NCBI GenBank assembly: GCA_007693605.1
Contig: REDG01000035.1
Location: forward strand, 1 to 64,000
DNA length: 64,000 bases
Reading direction: 5' to 3'
Origin: Bradymonadales bacterium
GTDB lineage: Bacteria > Bdellovibrionota > UBA2394
Below the pieces are notes generated by a model. That model saw nothing but the letters and a program-made list of their open reading frames with translations. It had not been told where the DNA came from and ran no database searches. Both the position numbers and the translations under genes were made by a program. Positions 34,303 through 41,302 of the stretch are shown here, in pieces (the stretch's first letter is position 1; each line of letters begins with the position of its first letter).

Positions 34303-34797
34303 ATGCTCAAAAGCTCTGAAATGCATCTGGTCTTGGTCGCGCCAAGAATTCCTGCGAATGTAGCGAGTGTGGCTCGAACGGCGATGGCCTTGGGGGCCAA
34401 GCTTCATCTGGTGGGGCCCTTTGGCTTTCGCTTAGACGAAAAGTCTATGGCTCGGGCATCGGTGGGCTACTTTAAAGAAGTAGACTACCAGACCTATATT
34501 GACTTCGACGACTTCTGGAAGTCGGCCCCTGTCGCGAGCTATATTTTTGTCACGAAACGGGGTGATTTTGACTACTCCGAGATCTCGTATTCACCGCCCC
34601 TTTGTTTGGTTTTTGGAAACGAAGAAGAGGGAGTGCCCCCAGAGTTTTGGGAAGTCCCAGGAGCCCAGAAATTTGTGTCTTGTCGGATTCCCACGGTCTC
34701 AGTACGCTGTTTAAACCTAGCGGTTGCGGTCGGAATACTGGGATTTGAGGTTCAAAGACAGTGGAGGCTGCAGAGAAAAATTGAGGGGGTAGGGTGA
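34303..34797 (+). CDS. trmL: tRNA (cytidine/uridine-34-2'-O)-methyltransferase, SPOUT family
   Basis: PRIPANVASVART, LHLVGPFGF, LVFGNEEEG, RCLNLA. Confidence 0.88.
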   Translation: MLKSSEMHLVLVAPRIPANVASVARTAMALGAKLHLVGPFGFRLDEKSMARASVGYFKEVDYQTYIDFDDFWKSAPVASYIFVTKRGDFDYSEISYSPPLCLVFGNEEEGVPPEFWEVPGAQKFVSCRIPTVSVRCLNLAVAVGILGFEVQRQWRLQRKIEGVG

Positions 34798-37700
34798 AGC
34801 TAAAACGCTTGTTAATGCAGGGATTCAAGTCCTTCGCAGACAAAACCGAGCTGGTTTTTGATGAGCAAATTGTTGGAGTGGTGGGCCCAAACGGCTGCGG
34901 AAAGAGCAATATTGTAGACGCCATTCGCTGGGCGATGGGCGAGCAATCCGCCAAGGGGCTTCGTGGCAAAGAGATGTCTGATGTCATTTTCGCCGGGACG
35001 CCGGCCCGAAAGGCTTCGGGTCTAGCGGAAGTCAGTTTGGTCTTTGATAACTCTGACCATCAGGCCCCTGCGCCTTATACGGATTGCGCAGAAATCATGA
35101 TTACTCGCCGGCTTTATCGAAGCGGAGAAAGTGACTACCTGATCAATCTGGTGACCGTGCGCTTGAAAGATATTCATGACCTTTTTCTGGGCACGGGCTC
35201 TTCGGCCAAAGCCTATTCCATCGTGGCCCAAGGCAAGGTAGACGAAGTGGTTTTGGCAAAACCCGAAGACCGCCGTTTCTTGATCGAAGAAGCCGCCGGC
35301 ATCGCGAAGTACAAAATCCGAAAGCAGTCGGCCGAGAGAAAAATGGAGGCCACCCAGCAAAATCTAGATCGCGTGAACGATCTCTTAAGGGAGCTGGAGA
35401 AGAATTCAAAGAACCTTGAGAGGCAGGTCGAAAAAGCGGAGAAGTTTCGCTCTCTGCAGTCTGAGTTGAAAGCCAAGGAGTGTGATTGGATTGCGGCTCG
35501 ATTGAAGCGATTGGATGAGTCAGCCGTCGCCAATCAAGAGGCCTTGCAGTCTGCTCAAGATGCTCTCACCGAAAAGCAGTCTCGGCTTGCTGAAATTGAA
35601 GCGAAGATCGAGACTCTACGGCTTGAGTCCTTGCAGTACGAGAAGATCACCGCAGAGGATTATGAGTCTTTGATGTCTACGAAAGATCAACTTGCTCGCT
35701 TGGATACCGAGAGGGAGTTGGCCCAACAGAAGATGGAGCTTTTGAACAATCAAATCGCCGAAAGGCGATCAGATGTCGCAAGGTTGGGATCAAAATTTGA
35801 GAATCAAGAGGGCTCAAGGCAGCAGCTTCAGGCAGAGCTAGAGAGACGACAGCAAGAGAGGCAGCAGGCCGATCAGAAGCTTCGAGAGCTTCAGGCGGCA
35901 AGGGATCAGGCAGAGGATCGACTCAAAGACACTCAGGCAAACCTTGAGCGGATTTCTGAGGTCTTACAGGCTCATCGCTCTGAGCTGGCGGTAGAGAGCC
36001 AGCAATTGAAGATGAAAAGGGCTGAGCTTGTAGACATTGAGCTCTATCGGGCGGGTTTGGAGTCTCGCCTAGAGGTAGAGCGGCAAGAGATCAAAAGCCT
36101 AGAGATTGAAGACCACAGCTTTAGCGAAGACTTGCAGACAAAGCTTGATGAACTTCGAGTAAAAAAAGAAGAAGAGCAAGATCTCAGCGGGCGACGGGAG
36201 CAGCTTCTCAAAGAGCGAGAGAGTTTGCTAGCGGAGCTTTCTCGGCTCGATTCGGGCTGCATCGAGAAAGAGGCCGCTATTAAAAGCCTTAAGCAGTTAG
36301 AGCAACATGCTTTGGGTTACGATGGCATGGCTTTAGAGCTCAAGAAGCAAACGGGTCTGGAGCTCCTCATGGATCAAGTCAAGTTTCGACCAGAGGCTCA
36401 GGATCTGGGCGAGACCTTGATTTATCATCTCGGCCAGTTCTTTACAGAGAGTCTTGCCGATCAAGCGCTCGAGGCTCGGTGGACGAGTCTTCTATTGAAA
36501 GCGGGCTCCAATCGCCCGGAGCGCAGTCTGAGCTCTCTGCTGGACGAGTCGTCGAGTGAGCAGGTCAAAGATTTATTCTCTGCCATTGAGCTGGTGGACG
36601 AAATCGATTGGGAGTCGCCCACGGAGTTCTGCCAGTTAGATCGAAAAGGCGGCTGGCGAGCTTCTTTGGGGGCGAGTCTGGAGTTGAGAAGTTTTGGTAA
36701 GGTTTCTAGAGAGCAGAGCCCCTTCTCTCGCCATCATGAGATCATTCGCTCTGAGCAGGAGCTTTCAGAACTAAGACAAGAGCTGGGAGCGATGCAGGCG
36801 CGAGTGGAAGACAATCTTCAAAGGCAAGAAGAGCTTCGCAAGAACCTAGAGAAGACTCAATTGGCGCGACAAGAAATTGAACAGAAGCTTGAAGCGCTTC
36901 GTCAGGATCGAGAGCTGATTTTACAGCAGAAAGCCGGAAAGAATGCTCTTGCAGAAGAGCTTTCTGAAGAGATTCAAAAGACCGAGGAAAAGATTGCGAA
37001 GAAGAACGGCGAGATTCTCAGTCTGCCTGAGTTGAAGAGCACAGAGTCGATGGAGTTGGAGCTGGCGGAGGCTCGGCAAAGACTGGCTGAGGCGAAGAAT
37101 CAACTCGATGAAAGAGACGCCGATTGGGTGGAGTACCGAATCGAATGTGGAGCTTTGCAAGAGAGGCTAGAAAGAATTCAGCAGCAGTTTGTTTCGCTCG
37201 ATATGGCTCAGTCCGAGTACAAGCACAACCAAGGTCTTTACCAAAAGGATATTGAATTGTGGGAGCAAGAGATTCACTCGCTTCGACAGAATGTCAAAGA
37301 CTGGGCTGAAAGGGGCGCTCAAGAGCGAGAGAAGGTCCAATCGCTTGAGAAGGGCCTCGCGAAGTCTAAGGATCAAGTCGCAAACTTTCGTCGTGATTTG
37401 GAGGAGCTAGAGAAGTCTCGGCGAGAGTGGGCTTCATCAAAAGAGGAGTTGGTCGAGAGTCTTCAAGCGCTGGAGCTTGAAAAACAGCGCTTTAGCCTTG
37501 AGCTTGAGGAGATCAATCGCAGTCTTGAGGAGCGCTATGAGATCTCGGCTCAACAGCTTTTGTCCTCTCTTTCAGAGGAAGACTTAGAGAGCTTGGCGAG
37601 TTCGTCCTTGGAAGAGATGGCCCTAGAGGTGAAGGCTTTGAGGGAGCGCTTGTCGAAGTTCGGAGATGTGAATCTTGTCGCCCTCACCGAATATGAAGAG

Positions 37701-38288
37701 ATGAAGTCTCGCGTGGAGTTCATGAACACTCAAAGAGAGGACTTGTTAGGCACCTTAAGCTCACTTCAGAGCATCATTGATCGGATCAATCGAATCTCTG
37801 AGTTTCGCTTTCGAGAGACTTTCAATGCGATTAACCATAATTTTCAGCTCCTCTTTCCGAAACTTTTCGGAGGGGGTAAGGCTTTTATGCGATTGACTGA
37901 TGAGTCGCAGCTCTTAGAGACCGGCGTAGAGATTTTTGCAGAGCCTCCTGGAAAGAAGATCCAGGCGATGTCTCTGTTAAGTGGAGGGGAGAAGGCCATG
38001 ACGAGCATTAGTCTGCTCTTTTCTCTCTTTGCCTATCGCCCCTCTTCATTTTGTATTCTGGACGAGGTCGACGCGCCCTTGGACGACATCAACACGAGGC
38101 GCTACAACGAGATCATTCGAGAAATGTCCTCTCTTTCTCAGTTTATCGTGGTGACGCACAACAAGCGAACCATGGAAGCCGCATCCACCCTCTTTGGGGT
38201 GACTATGCAAGAGCCTGGCTGTTCTCGAATTGTTGGGGTCAACCTCACCGAAGCCAAGGCGTTCACCACGGCAGCGGCTGAGGCTTAA
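34794..38288 (+). CDS. smc: Chromosome segregation protein SMC
   Basis: GFKSF, GPNGCGKSN Walker A, long coiled coils, LSGGEK signature, CILDEVDAPLD, VTHN. Confidence 0.96.
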   Translation: MKLKRLLMQGFKSFADKTELVFDEQIVGVVGPNGCGKSNIVDAIRWAMGEQSAKGLRGKEMSDVIFAGTPARKASGLAEVSLVFDNSDHQAPAPYTDCAEIMITRRLYRSGESDYLINLVTVRLKDIHDLFLGTGSSAKAYSIVAQGKVDEVVLAKPEDRRFLIEEAAGIAKYKIRKQSAERKMEATQQNLDRVNDLLRELEKNSKNLERQVEKAEKFRSLQSELKAKECDWIAARLKRLDESAVANQEALQSAQDALTEKQSRLAEIEAKIETLRLESLQYEKITAEDYESLMSTKDQLARLDTERELAQQKMELLNNQIAERRSDVARLGSKFENQEGSRQQLQAELERRQQERQQADQKLRELQAARDQAEDRLKDTQANLERISEVLQAHRSELAVESQQLKMKRAELVDIELYRAGLESRLEVERQEIKSLEIEDHSFSEDLQTKLDELRVKKEEEQDLSGRREQLLKERESLLAELSRLDSGCIEKEAAIKSLKQLEQHALGYDGMALELKKQTGLELLMDQVKFRPEAQDLGETLIYHLGQFFTESLADQALEARWTSLLLKAGSNRPERSLSSLLDESSSEQVKDLFSAIELVDEIDWESPTEFCQLDRKGGWRASLGASLELRSFGKVSREQSPFSRHHEIIRSEQELSELRQELGAMQARVEDNLQRQEELRKNLEKTQLARQEIEQKLEALRQDRELILQQKAGKNALAEELSEEIQKTEEKIAKKNGEILSLPELKSTESMELELAEARQRLAEAKNQLDERDADWVEYRIECGALQERLERIQQQFVSLDMAQSEYKHNQGLYQKDIELWEQEIHSLRQNVKDWAERGAQEREKVQSLEKGLAKSKDQVANFRRDLEELEKSRREWASSKEELVESLQALELEKQRFSLELEEINRSLEERYEISAQQLLSSLSEEDLESLASSSLEEMALEVKALRERLSKFGDVNLVALTEYEEMKSRVEFMNTQREDLLGTLSSLQSIIDRINRISEFRFRETFNAINHNFQLLFPKLFGGGKAFMRLTDESQLLETGVEIFAEPPGKKIQAMSLLSGGEKAMTSISLLFSLFAYRPSSFCILDEVDAPLDDINTRRYNEIIREMSSLSQFIVVTHNKRTMEAASTLFGVTMQEPGCSRIVGVNLTEAKAFTTAAAEA

Positions 38289-38418
38289 GTTCGCTCCCTT
38301 TTCGGGACTGTCGCCAAACTCTGGATTCGGGAGTGGCGTTAATGGCCCATCTGCTTCGGCGGCTGCTTCGCTCCCTTTTTGTGATGATCCTCTGCTGAAA
38401 TTTCGATAGAAGGTCTTC

Positions 38419-39522
38419 ATGTCTGATTTTTCATGGTCGCCGGAGTGGATTTTTGGCCTGACGCTCATTTTGTTGATGCTCTATGGTCTGGGGCTTGTCT
38501 ACAGAAAGTGGAAGTATGGAAACATCGACCGCTTTACGAGTCGCAAGAAGAAGGCCCCAGTCTCAGAGGATTCAGAGCTGGAGCGTTCGGATTCTGAATC
38601 GAGAGCCGGTGTTCGTCCGCCCTCTGCCGATCAGGAGCTGAAGCCCACAAAAAAGAGACTTCGACTGTCCAAAGCCATTGCGGATTGGTTTCCACTTCTT
38701 CAGAAGGACTCTAAAGACCCCAAAGAGTGGGAGCGAGTGATGATTTCTTCTGATCTTGGACCAAAACTGACGAAAGACTTGATTGCTGAGCTTCAAGGCC
38801 TTGAGGAAGAGCCTAAGGTTTTCTTGAAAAGACGATTGAAGGCTTGGCTTGATATCGAGACCCCCAAAAGGCCCGAAGACTCTTCGAGTCGTCCCTGGAC
38901 GGTCTTTGTGATCGGCGTGAATGGAGCGGGCAAGACGACCAGCATCGTAAAGTTAGCTCATTTCTATCGAAATCAGGGAAAATCGGTGGCAGTAATCGCC
39001 GCCGACACCTTTCGAAAGGCGGCGGTAGAGCAGCTTCAACGAGCCTGCGATCGTCATCAGATACCATGCTTTCAGGTGGTTCGAGAAGGAAGCACCGAGG
39101 GGGCCGATCCGGCCTCCGTTGTTTTCGACGGCCTAAAAAAGTTTCGAGAAGTCGATATCGTGTTGGTCGATACCAGCGGGCGGCTTCATAATAAAAAGAA
39201 CCTGATGGAAGAGTTAAAAAAGATGCAGAGGGTCGCCGAAAAGGCCTTGAACTCACCGCCTCAAGAGAAGCTTTTGGTGATTGATGCCTCTTTGGGGCAG
39301 AACGCGGTGCAGCAAGCTGAAAGTTTTCATGAAGCGGTGGGGGTCACGGGGATCATGTTGACCAAGCTAGATGGTTTGAGTCGGGGCGGCAGTGTTTTTC
39401 AGATGGTTCAGAGTCTGAGAATTCCCGTTCGATTTCTCGGAACCGGGGAGTCGGTTGAAGATCTGAGGGAATTTCGGGCAGATGAATTTGTCGATGAAAT
39501 GTTTGACCAGACTGGCACTTAA
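38419..39522 (+). CDS. ftsY: SRP receptor FtsY with N-terminal TM helix
   Basis: GVNGAGKTT, DTFRKAA, DTSGR, TKLDG; follows smc. Confidence 0.95.
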   Translation: MSDFSWSPEWIFGLTLILLMLYGLGLVYRKWKYGNIDRFTSRKKKAPVSEDSELERSDSESRAGVRPPSADQELKPTKKRLRLSKAIADWFPLLQKDSKDPKEWERVMISSDLGPKLTKDLIAELQGLEEEPKVFLKRRLKAWLDIETPKRPEDSSSRPWTVFVIGVNGAGKTTSIVKLAHFYRNQGKSVAVIAADTFRKAAVEQLQRACDRHQIPCFQVVREGSTEGADPASVVFDGLKKFREVDIVLVDTSGRLHNKKNLMEELKKMQRVAEKALNSPPQEKLLVIDASLGQNAVQQAESFHEAVGVTGIMLTKLDGLSRGGSVFQMVQSLRIPVRFLGTGESVEDLREFRADEFVDEMFDQTGT

Positions 39523-39581
39523 TACTAAGGCTTGAAACCAGTTTGTCGTAATCAAGGAACTACCAGAGGAGATAGAGAGAA

Positions 39582-39758
39582 ATGTCAGATAGCTTAATTA
39601 TTCAATCGAAGATACGGGATGTATTTAAAGAGGCGGGATGCAACACAGGAAGTGATGCGATTGATTCCCTTAATCAAGAGGTGGCTCGAATTGTGAAGCG
39701 CGCAGTCGAGAGAACAAAGGAGAACGGTCGAAAAACCGTAAAATCTTCAGATATTTAG
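39582..39758 (+). CDS. Bacterial histone-fold protein, Bd0055-like (58 aa; absent from ORF track)
   Basis: MSDSLIIQSKIRDVFKEAGCNTGSDAIDSLNQEVARIVKRAVERTKENGRKTVKSSDI; AGGAG RBS; RKTV-x3-D histone-fold motif; terminator downstream. Confidence 0.88.
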   Translation: MSDSLIIQSKIRDVFKEAGCNTGSDAIDSLNQEVARIVKRAVERTKENGRKTVKSSDI

Positions 39759-39792
39759 CCCATTTTCGCTAAATTTTTCCGAAAACGAGTAT

Positions 39793-39824
39793 AAAAAAAG
39801 GGCCTCCCAAAGGAGGCCCTTTTT
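39793..39824. terminator. Bidirectional intrinsic terminator
   Basis: A7-GGGCCTCC-CAAA-GGAGGCCC-T5 between convergent genes. Confidence 0.9.
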
Positions 39825-39843
39825 GCAAACCCAAGAAGAGAGC

Positions 39844-39966
39844 TTACTTTCTCTTTTTCTTAGTAGCTTTTCGCTTGGTTGCTTTTCGCTTAGAAGCTTT
39901 TCGCTTCGTTGCTTTCTTCTTAGTAGCTTTTTTCTTAGTAGCTTTTCTTTTTCTTCTAGCGGCCAT
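39844..39966 (-). CDS. Small highly basic histone H1-tail/protamine-like protein (40 aa; absent from ORF track)
   Basis: MAARRKRKATKKKATKKKATKRKASKRKATKRKATKKKRK; AAGGAGA RBS; DNA repeats vary mostly synonymously; ends near the terminator. Confidence 0.82.
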   Translation of the reverse strand: MAARRKRKATKKKATKKKATKRKASKRKATKRKATKKKRK

Positions 39967-39987
39967 GTTTTCTCCTTCGTCGATTTT

Positions 39988-40047
39988 GAATTAGGTCAGG
40001 GGCTTTGTCCTCAAGTAACGAAGAGGATAAATCCACTGATCCAATTC
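39988..40047. other. Long imperfect hairpin upstream of the basic-protein gene
   Basis: GAATTAGGTCAGGGGCTTTGTCCTC / GAGGATAAATCCACTGATCCAATTC, about 25-bp imperfect stem. Confidence 0.55.
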
Positions 40048-40102
40048 TGTTTATCAAGAATCGAAAAACAACAACAGCGTTTTTCTGCTCTTGACACTTA
40101 CT

Positions 40103-40133
40103 AACATTTTAAAATGTTTTTCTTTTGTTGCAA
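40103..40133 (-). promoter_or_regulatory. Candidate promoter of the basic-protein gene with an overlapping palindrome
   Basis: Minus strand TTGCAA-16-TAAAAT in AT-rich DNA; perfect palindrome AACATTTTAAAATGTT at 40103-40118. Confidence 0.4.
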
Positions 40134-40231
40134 TACCTATTTCTTAATTCTCTGCGAATTTTGCAAAAAAATTGCCTCAAAGTTTCAATTCGGACATGAA
40201 ACAAAGTCTATTGAGTACATTCTCGTGCAGC

Positions 40232-41143
40232 TTATCGGATTTCGATTCTTCGATCGGGATTGTTTCGACTAGTTCGGCGAGCTTTTGGCTTGGGCAAGCT
40301 TCTCATGACTTCGATCGATTGCTGAAAGTTTCGAGGCAGTTGCCGCATGTTTGCCGGAGTTGGGGAAAAGTAAATGCTCTCACCGCTCTCTAGTGTGAGT
40401 TCGATGTATTGATCGGTAGTTTGAGAGATCGAACGAACCTCTTGAGGTCGAAACCGCTGTCCGGCCACTTCATACTCCTGTTGAATCTGCGCTCTTTTGC
40501 CCTCTTGGATTTCTTTTGACACATATTGAACGCCCAAAAAGAGGTTGAGAACGAGTAGAGCGACCAAGGCGCCAAACTTCTGAAATCGCTCCCGTCGGCT
40601 CTGGGCCTGCTCCCACTTCAACAGGCGGATCTCCTCTAAGCGATCGATGCTGGCCTGTTTCGTCTTGGCTTGAACCGCGACGCCAGACGGCAGTGCCGAG
40701 CGAACAAAAGACTCTAAGCGCGACCGAATGTCTTGAGTGAGGTTCACAAACTCTACCCCAAGTCCATTAGGAGCGACCCGACACACCCGAGCCTTCAGTT
40801 GAAAGTCAAAGCTTTCTCCATTTGCCGGATTCGGAACGCTGAAATGAATGCCGATGAGTTCGCCCACCCGCCTCTTCTCGTCAGTTTTGACAAAAAGGCC
40901 CCCTAAAGAGATGTTCTCAATATAGTGCTTGGCGAATTGTGCATCGTGCGAAAAACGAAGGCTAATCTCGTTCTTTCTAAGCCCGGCCCGTGAAAAGCTT
41001 CTTCGCTCGTCCGGACTGGGATGTTCAGGCTGTGTGTCTGAATCTAAAGACTGCGCCTTCGAATCTGCTTCAGCCGTTGATGGCTCTGACTTGTCGGTCC
41101 CTTCCGTATCGAAGAGGCTTTCAATTCGGTCTTTAAAATCCAT
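40232..41143 (-). CDS. PilZ-domain membrane protein
   Basis: RRSFSR (RxxxR) and ENISLGG (NxSxGG), GLGVEF; one TM then a soluble domain. Confidence 0.8.
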   Translation of the reverse strand: MDFKDRIESLFDTEGTDKSEPSTAEADSKAQSLDSDTQPEHPSPDERRSFSRAGLRKNEISLRFSHDAQFAKHYIENISLGGLFVKTDEKRRVGELIGIHFSVPNPANGESFDFQLKARVCRVAPNGLGVEFVNLTQDIRSRLESFVRSALPSGVAVQAKTKQASIDRLEEIRLLKWEQAQSRRERFQKFGALVALLVLNLFLGVQYVSKEIQEGKRAQIQQEYEVAGQRFRPQEVRSISQTTDQYIELTLESGESIYFSPTPANMRQLPRNFQQSIEVMRSLPKPKARRTSRNNPDRRIEIR

Positions 41144-41302
41144 GAAATCCCCGCACTCCAAACTTCAGTTTACCAAATTCCCTGAATTTTCGGGCCTCTA
41201 GCTCAAATGAGAATGATCTGGCCCCCTGAATCCGAAAGAGCGGAACTAAGTGACTAAAATCACTGCTTTTCTAAAGGGCTCTCCTCAAGATAAAAGAGAA
41301 GG

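Follow-up and report, generated by a model that had tools for sequence, protein, structure and literature searches.

The window, a stretch of 64,000 nucleotides from an uncultured member of the Bdellovibrionota (contig REDG01000035.1), carries a micro-gene of 40 codons on its minus strand. The surrounding gene order is SMC (34794-38288, plus strand), FtsY (38419-39522, plus strand; PF00448, E 2.1e-68), a 58-aa histone-fold protein (plus strand), a terminator, the micro-gene (minus strand) and a PilZ protein (minus strand). The locus comprises:

39582..39758, plus strand: gene for a 58-aa singlet with a histone fold (HBb/Bd0055 kind), facing the micro-gene tail to tail
39793..39826, both strands: bidirectional intrinsic terminator, stem GGGCCTCC / GGAGGCCC, with flanking A-run and T-run
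39844..39966, minus strand: coding sequence of the micro-gene, 40 codons plus TAA, assigned on the basis of orthologues and a codon-position test
39859..39947, minus strand: diverged tandem array of 15-nt units encoding six pentamers, found by Tandem Repeats Finder
39967..39984, minus strand: ribosome-binding block ATCGACGAAGGAGAAAAC, with AAGGAGA at 39971-39977
39985..40099, minus strand: predicted 5' leader with two hairpins, the second kept in G000, G002 and G005
40106..40133, minus strand: sigma-70-type promoter TTGCAA-16-TAAAAT from a promoter scan, TTGCA and TAxAAT being invariant in 9/9 complete orthologues
40232..41161, minus strand: PilZ-domain protein of 309 aa (PF07238, E 1.3e-13)

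The frame from 39966 to 39844 translates into MAARRKRKATKKKATKKKATKRKASKRKATKRKATKKKRK, a peptide of 40 aa composed of 18 K, 7 R, 8 A, 5 T, 1 S and 1 M, with 0 D/E. K and R account for 25 of the 40 residues (62%). MAARRKRK is followed by six pentamers of the form A[T/S]K[K/R]K (ATKKK, ATKKK, ATKRK, ASKRK, ATKRK and ATKKK, in this order) and by a terminal RK. Re-reading of the frame and its translation confirmed the length, the 25 basic residues, the absence of acidic ones and the six repeats given in the initial annotation. The array has a period of 15, 5.9 copies, 79% matches and no indels. Its units differ, as had been claimed, either synonymously (GCT/GCA; ACT/ACG/ACC; AAA/AAG) or by K/R and T/S swaps. 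From its composition the peptide is presumably disordered, with no fold.

The genome of the window (G000) is a 2.19-Mb assembly of 79 contigs with 49.4% GC. A K+R content of at least 50% was found in 24 of its 42,606 first-start ORFs of 12-120 aa. The micro-gene is the longest of these 24 (40 aa) and the only repetitive one, the runner-up being a non-repetitive ORF of 22 aa. This rarity and the gap in length place the micro-gene beyond chance.

A spacer of 265 nt separates the micro-gene from the PilZ gene, which lies upstream on the same strand and has an orthologue at the same position in G002 (31% identity, E 9e-41). The spacer carries the micro-gene's own promoter. A transcription start is predicted from this promoter near 40099 and yields a whole 5' UTR of ~133 nt. 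The predicted leader fold leaves the Shine-Dalgarno (SD) region unpaired, and AAGGAGA is 4 nt distant from the ATG. The predicted 310-nt transcript folds with a z of -4.24, SD and start being open. Its terminator, common to the micro-gene (minus) and the convergent histone gene (plus), is a 13-bp GC-rich hairpin with a U-run, preceded by a small hairpin after the TAA. The fold amounts to -31.9 kcal/mol (z -6.16), and 0/200 shuffles were as good. The ribosome-binding site AAGGAGA and a stop just ahead of the terminator, both seen earlier, were found again, the hairpin lying ~20 nt past the TAA. A consensus scanner listed the promoter-like site from 40133 to 40106, and the hairpin at 39793..39826 was absent from its list. 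An Rfam scan gave no match at the gathering score; the best was MicX, with 29.6 bits (cut-off 75) on the opposite strand. Among the sequencing runs listed as containing the window DNA, none was of RNA. In the ~6% covered of each of two metatranscriptome runs, which come from the study that yielded the window DNA, 0 reads fell on 38400-41200, and the organism may be absent from both. From the consensus-like promoter, the strong SD and the stabilising hairpins we infer that the micro-gene is translated in vivo and abundant. Read from the DNA, the promoter, structured leader, SD, ATG-GCN-GCN, lysine-rich frame and terminator make up a self-contained unit.

The arms of the leader hairpin at 39985-40050 (AATTGGRTCAGTGG ... 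CCCCTGA) are conserved, and its tip varies. The hairpin occurs only in G000, G002 and G005, the genomes with the three longest peptides. After the stop, at 39827-39843, lies a pyrimidine-rich stretch, CUCUCUUCUU, for which the fold predicts pairing with the purine-rich coding region; several orthologues likewise have CU-rich 3' UTRs. At 40103-40118 of the window, a perfect palindrome of 16 bp, AACATTTTAAAATGTT, overlaps the -10 box. The promoters of the eight orthologues do not conserve this palindrome, which makes a role as operator doubtful.

The convergent histone matches the Pfam family PF00808 (CBFD_NFYB_HMF, E 0.0016) and the NCBIfam family NF043032 (archaea_histone, E 1.1e-6), each below the curated cut-off. 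It was typed as a 'bacterial dimer' histone (HBb/Bd0055) from the description available in PMC11390915. Identity to orthologues in the genomes of ten relatives is 69-74%, and the family alignment has a mean column identity of 91%. The protein is present in a 15-billion-protein collection as a singleton. The genome of the window holds two tail-less histone genes of the HBb/Bd0055 kind (56-58 aa), which are 64% identical to each other. The window copy follows smc-ftsY, and the second copy is located at G000:C49:5441-5608 (L022). Genes for 58-aa histone-fold proteins with 34-43% identity were found at 34 MAG loci among the 48 returned (L069-L106), titled Nitriliruptoraceae, Nitriliruptorales, Egicoccus and Actinomycetota. 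The phyla given for 'bacterial dimer' histones in the available text of PMC11390915 do not include Actinomycetota. Diverged histone paralogues in G006, G011 and G007 (L019, L020, L026) have short basic starts, MAKKK... or MAKKNKKGKKGE..., and G006 also has a zinc-ribbon and histone-fold protein resembling ZZ-histones (L027). G006 and G011 are also two of the three family genomes in which no micro-gene was found. A search for a Rosetta-stone protein, in which a long lysine tail would be joined to a histone, returned only the short MAKKK or MAKKNKKGKKGE starts (L019, L020, L026) and the zinc-ribbon histone (L027), none with a long tail, and the idea was dropped as evidence.

Orthologues and selection on the peptide

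The family set consists of 14 genomes of uncultured Bdellovibrionota, in which the DNA beside the histone orthologue was read. A tblastn-type search with the peptide gave weak matches only. The micro-ORF is present in 11 of the 14 genomes, complete in nine (G000, G001, G002, G003, G004, G005, G007, G012 and G013) and cut by contig ends in two. G009 retains the 5' part, its contig ending just past the start codon, and G010 the 3' part beside the histone. The micro-ORF and the histone gene converge in 10 of the 11 genomes. The complete copies encode 17, 18 (five genomes), 22, 31 and 40 aa. The window copy is thus the longest: among the eight others that are complete, G002 has 31 aa and the remaining seven have 17-22 aa. 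The window copy also contains seven Arg, G002 one, and the other seven complete copies none. Eight of the nine peptides start with MAA[K/R]KK or a close variant, and G003 with MAKKKK. A basic C-terminal run preceded by A[T/S] ends all nine, and the A[T/S]K motif is kept in 9/9.

The expression signals follow the same pattern. A TTGCA-N17-19-TAxAAT promoter with invariant alignment columns, a leader of 55-171 nt with stable hairpins, an ATG start, and a GC-rich hairpin with a T-run after the stop were each found in 9/9 complete copies; GCN GCN follows the start in 8/9. The ribosome-binding block CTCGACGAAGGAGAA is nearly invariant across the family and predicted to be unpaired.

No micro-gene was found in G006, G008 and G011 (87, 95 and 76% complete), three of the 14 family genomes. 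In G008 the site has been rearranged, and a gene for a DEAD-box helicase now follows the histone on its downstream side. In these genomes the micro-gene may therefore be dispensable, moved or unassembled. Assemblies tend to break within the micro-ORF, as seen from the contig ends in G010 (L017) and G009 (L108). The Logan contigs of the run containing the window DNA are split at 39835-39983. Such breaks inside the micro-ORF partly explain why the gene is absent from catalogues.

The substitution pattern points to the encoded peptide. Among the all-purine codons of the nine ORFs (n=126), G occupies positions 1, 2 and 3 in 2, 7 and 62 cases, respectively. G at position 1 encodes Gly and G at position 2 Arg or Gly; the number of GAR (Glu) codons is 0. 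In the five 18-codon orthologues, the variable columns are distributed over the codon positions as 3/3/15, and pairwise codon differences comprise 67 synonymous versus 20 non-synonymous ones. Every family copy is free of Glu and Asp codons, internal stops and frameshifts, and all length differences between copies are multiples of three. Frameshifts or stops in orthologous loci had been named by the initial annotation as evidence that would speak against the gene; none was found in 9/9 complete orthologues. Frame, start, stop and SD are kept in 9/9 and changes are mostly synonymous, the behaviour of a conserved coding gene. Selection acts on the protein, because a constraint on the purine tract would spread A and G evenly, whereas Lys is kept and Glu absent. 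The selection on protein level first proposed from the repeat units of a single copy is thus borne out by the purine codon positions and by the excess of synonymous differences among relatives. On these comparative grounds, the micro-gene is a real, separately transcribed gene under purifying selection on its amino acid sequence.

Database searches and the wider phylum

The peptide matched 0 Pfam and 0 NCBIfam families at E <= 1, which agrees with its earlier description as domain-free. By exact look-up, neither the peptide nor any of four related micro-ORFs (31, 30, 34 and 77 aa) occurs in the 15-billion-protein collection. A word-indexed protein search yielded none among 4 candidates of 22-70 aa and none among 130 candidates of 71-2000 aa, a result made uninformative by the composition correction of HMMER and by such ORFs not being called. 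A full HMMER scan gave 14 matches at E <= 0.001 (best 3.8e-9), located on lysine-rich stretches of proteins of 158-1017 aa. Pfam was run on 10 of the 14, yielding three unrelated domains (WGR, DUF4272 and SUKH), two sub-threshold HC2 matches and five proteins with none. The matches were rejected as a protein family: the similarity is compositional, because the domains found in the scanned proteins were unrelated. The ESM Atlas offered, as leads only, unnamed clusters of 39-55 aa at 0.94-0.95 and, as nearest family-bearing cluster, PF07382 (score 0.87, 23% of members). The titles and abstract openings listed by literature searches contained no description of lysine-rich micro-genes. In the available main text of the Bd0055 paper, the terms 'lysine-rich', 'H1-like', 'protamine', 'Bd0054', 'Bd0056' and 'ftsY' do not occur (PMC10627809). 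The micro-gene is unannotated and has been missed by gene callers.

A phylum-wide DNA pattern was applied to 301 genomes. It demanded a fourth basic codon and recovered 2 of 13 family orthologues. Stand-alone micro-ORFs of 26-34 aa were found in the families f3, f5 and f10, the 26-aa copy belonging to f3. Both copies in f3 are located between hisS and an rlmH-like gene, and both in f5 beside one and the same response-regulator gene. These micro-ORFs of other families have their own SD and terminator each. Longer repeat proteins of 77 aa (f32) and 113 aa (f4) also occur, and f12 has a protein of >200 aa with a similar lysine-rich N-terminus. In G118, a frame from L055:1501 onward reaches the end of the locus without a stop, a length of at least 507 aa. 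This frame begins with ~60 lysine-rich residues (MAAKKKKK...) and then resembles, by eye, the start of a primary sigma factor. Judged by this sampling of genomes, the micro-gene class is phylum-wide. A histone match within ~1.5 kb was found at 0/9 loci from other families, so the adjacency to a histone gene is a trait of one family, inherited and not repeatedly evolved.

Candidate roles of the polycation

The reading ranked first, held with middling confidence and by analogy, is that of a free polycation which would bind the DNA of the nucleoid non-specifically by charge and aid its compaction. With ~25 positive charges and no fold, the peptide would neutralise phosphates and thereby promote compaction, as the lysine-rich tails of H1, Hc2 and AlgP do. 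The main ligand would be DNA rather than RNA, ribosomes or polyphosphate. DNA was placed first because of the design shared with the tails of Hc2, H1 and AlgP and because of the need of small cells to compact their DNA. In Bdellovibrionota, the very small cell of the attack phase has to accommodate a large chromosome, and the histones of these bacteria (Bd0055/HBb) were recognised only in 2023. Further chromatin-remodelling or compaction proteins of B. bacteriovorus are still unidentified according to the available text of a review (PMC11318664). The micro-gene is an obvious candidate for a missing compaction factor of the Bdellovibrionota. A gene for a bare polycation would escape gene callers and trypsin-based proteomics, and often assemblers as well, the contigs of two relatives ending inside it.

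The DNA condensation and phase separation put forward in the initial annotation are inferred from the composition of the peptide. By itself, the sequence favours none of DNA, RNA, ribosomes and polyphosphate as ligand. A phospho-switch on the Thr/Ser residues, proposed at the same time, is possible, the circumstantial evidence being the A[T/S]K motif kept in 9/9 and nine Hanks-type kinase domains in the genome of the window. The small non-A-rich codons may also simply interrupt slippery A-runs. The sequencing run containing the window DNA is labelled soda lake metagenome. Binding of oligolysine to DNA depends steeply on salt. The additional charges and the Arg of the window copy could, speculatively, maintain tight binding where salt and pH are high.

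A ribosome- or RNA-associated polycation, either an accessory ribosomal protein or a general RNA chaperone and not a nucleoid protein, ranks second and is possible, though on the unlikely side. Tiny, very basic accessory ribosomal proteins are known in bS22, Thx and eL41. The size, the charge and the strong, conserved signals of the micro-gene suit small ribosomal proteins equally well, and the f3 position between hisS and an rlmH-like gene is a translation-related context. Hc2 binds RNA with higher affinity than Hc1 does and represses translation, as described in the available part of PMC2848022. However, the peptide matches no Pfam or NCBIfam model at E <= 1, those of the small basic ribosomal proteins bL34, bL36, bS21, bS22 and Thx included. 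Its length ranges from 17 to 40 aa in the family and exceeds 100 aa in the phylum, unlike that of proteins filling a fixed rRNA pocket, and a ribosomal-protein operon was seen at none of the loci read.

Binding to polyphosphate or another non-nucleic polyanion would make the peptide a granule organiser or charge buffer and is quite improbable. A precedent exists in AlgP, whose KPAA-rich tail associates with polyphosphate granules and spaces them, according to the text available from PMC9239181. Nor does a pure polycation by its nature prefer DNA. Yet no polyphosphate kinase or granule gene was found among the neighbours read, and the peptide has no anchoring domain such as that of AlgP.

An equally slim chance is given to a cis-regulatory small ORF, of which the translation would matter and not the product: sensing of Lys-tRNA or ribosome stalling would control termination and antisense read-through into the histone gene. 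A-rich lysine runs slow ribosomes or let them slide, the short ORF is followed by a terminator within ~20-80 nt, and read-through would indeed be antisense to the histone gene. A leader peptide or attenuator is, however, hard to reconcile with the arrangement, since a downstream gene on the same strand is absent in the family; the minus strand continues into the 3' end of the convergent histone gene, as it does in the nine complete orthologues. Stop and terminator lie ~10 to 80 nt apart, depending on the copy, and neither inspection by eye nor the minimum free energy folds revealed a conserved antiterminator pairing. Retention of Lys and A[T/S]K and exclusion of Glu and Asp indicate that the product matters, and the ORFs of other families are placed in unrelated contexts with their own terminator.

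A non-coding, purine-rich small RNA, with the open frame as by-product of the purine tract, is very improbable. Conservation of promoter and terminator fits a small RNA too, the AAG/AAA tract lacks stops in all same-strand frames of several orthologues, and the predicted mRNA is well folded (z -4.24). Against this, a constraint on the purine tract would allow A-to-G changes at all codon positions, whereas 2/7/62 were observed; SD, spacing, ATG and stop are conserved in 9/9, and Rfam gave no match at the gathering score. Least probable of all is a role in predation, for which the polycation would be passed to prey and there disturb the outer membrane or condense DNA: polycations permeabilise Gram-negative outer membranes and the relatives are titled Bdellovibrionota/Bacteriovoracaceae, a predatory group, but the 40 residues contain neither signal peptide nor hydrophobic stretch and no secretion genes adjoin the micro-gene.

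The nucleoid-binding reading can be extended to the neighbouring gene, at a rather low probability. The peptide would then be a histone tail encoded in trans and form, together with the tail-less HBb-type histone, the two halves of one chromatin system. It would neutralise the DNA along the stretches coated by histone or in the gaps between them. The number of repeats and the Arg content could be tuned to the ionic environment, as suggested by the 40 aa and seven Arg in the soda-lake genome. If true, this would be a minimal bacterial analogue of the division of labour between core histones and H1.

Comparison with known lysine-rich proteins

The micro-gene is of a minimal lysine-rich, H1-like kind and a member of neither Hc2 nor H1 nor the protamines. 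The label 'protamine-like' of the initial annotation was dropped; it fits poorly because the peptide is dominated by lysine (18 K versus 7 R) and contains no Cys, and Pfam gave 0 matches, protamines included.

With the C-terminal domain of H1 and tail-only H1-like proteins the peptide shares a Lys/Ala/Thr/Ser-rich, presumably disordered and net positive chain, and its gene adjoins one for a histone fold. In contrast to H1, it is bacterial and ten-fold shorter and has no winged-helix domain, no Pro and no S/TPKK. The globular domain of linker histones H1/H5 (PF00538) was not found, and 40 aa leave no room for it; homology to H1 was not detectable in the Pfam, word-indexed and full HMMER searches.

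Hc2 of Chlamydia and the Hc2-like BpH1 of Bordetella consist of consecutive lysine-rich pentamers that vary in number, and bind DNA and RNA by charge, as far as described in the available text of PMC2848022. The likeness lies in the lysine-rich pentamers (six units, 15-nt period, 5.9 copies), the Ala/Thr/Ser spacers, the variable repeat number and the absence of a globular fold. Hc2 is a protein of 165-237 aa whose repeats have conserved flanks and whose pentamers each carry two basic residues (PMC2848022, available part). The micro-gene peptide, in contrast, is 40 aa long (most relatives have 17-22 aa), carries three basic residues in each pentamer and lacks flanks, only MAA lying outside the basic repeats, and the PF07382 profile gave no match at E <= 1.

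AlgP of Pseudomonas has an H1-like, lysine-rich KPAA tail that binds DNA and polyphosphate granules and spaces the granules, according to the available text (PMC9239181). Both are lysine-rich low-complexity repeats, the binding of polyanions being that of AlgP. AlgP consists of an N-terminal domain and a Pro-containing tail of 154 aa, whereas the micro-gene peptide is a bare tail without Pro.

ScvA of Coxiella, which we take to be a protein of ~30 aa, rich in Arg and Gln and not a Lys pentamer repeat, is compared here with no claim of homology. ScvA and Hq1 are described in the available part of PMC4766238 as small basic proteins that bind DNA in the condensed small-cell variant. Like the micro-gene peptide, ScvA is very small, basic and free of domains, and the developmental form in which it is enriched has a condensed nucleoid.
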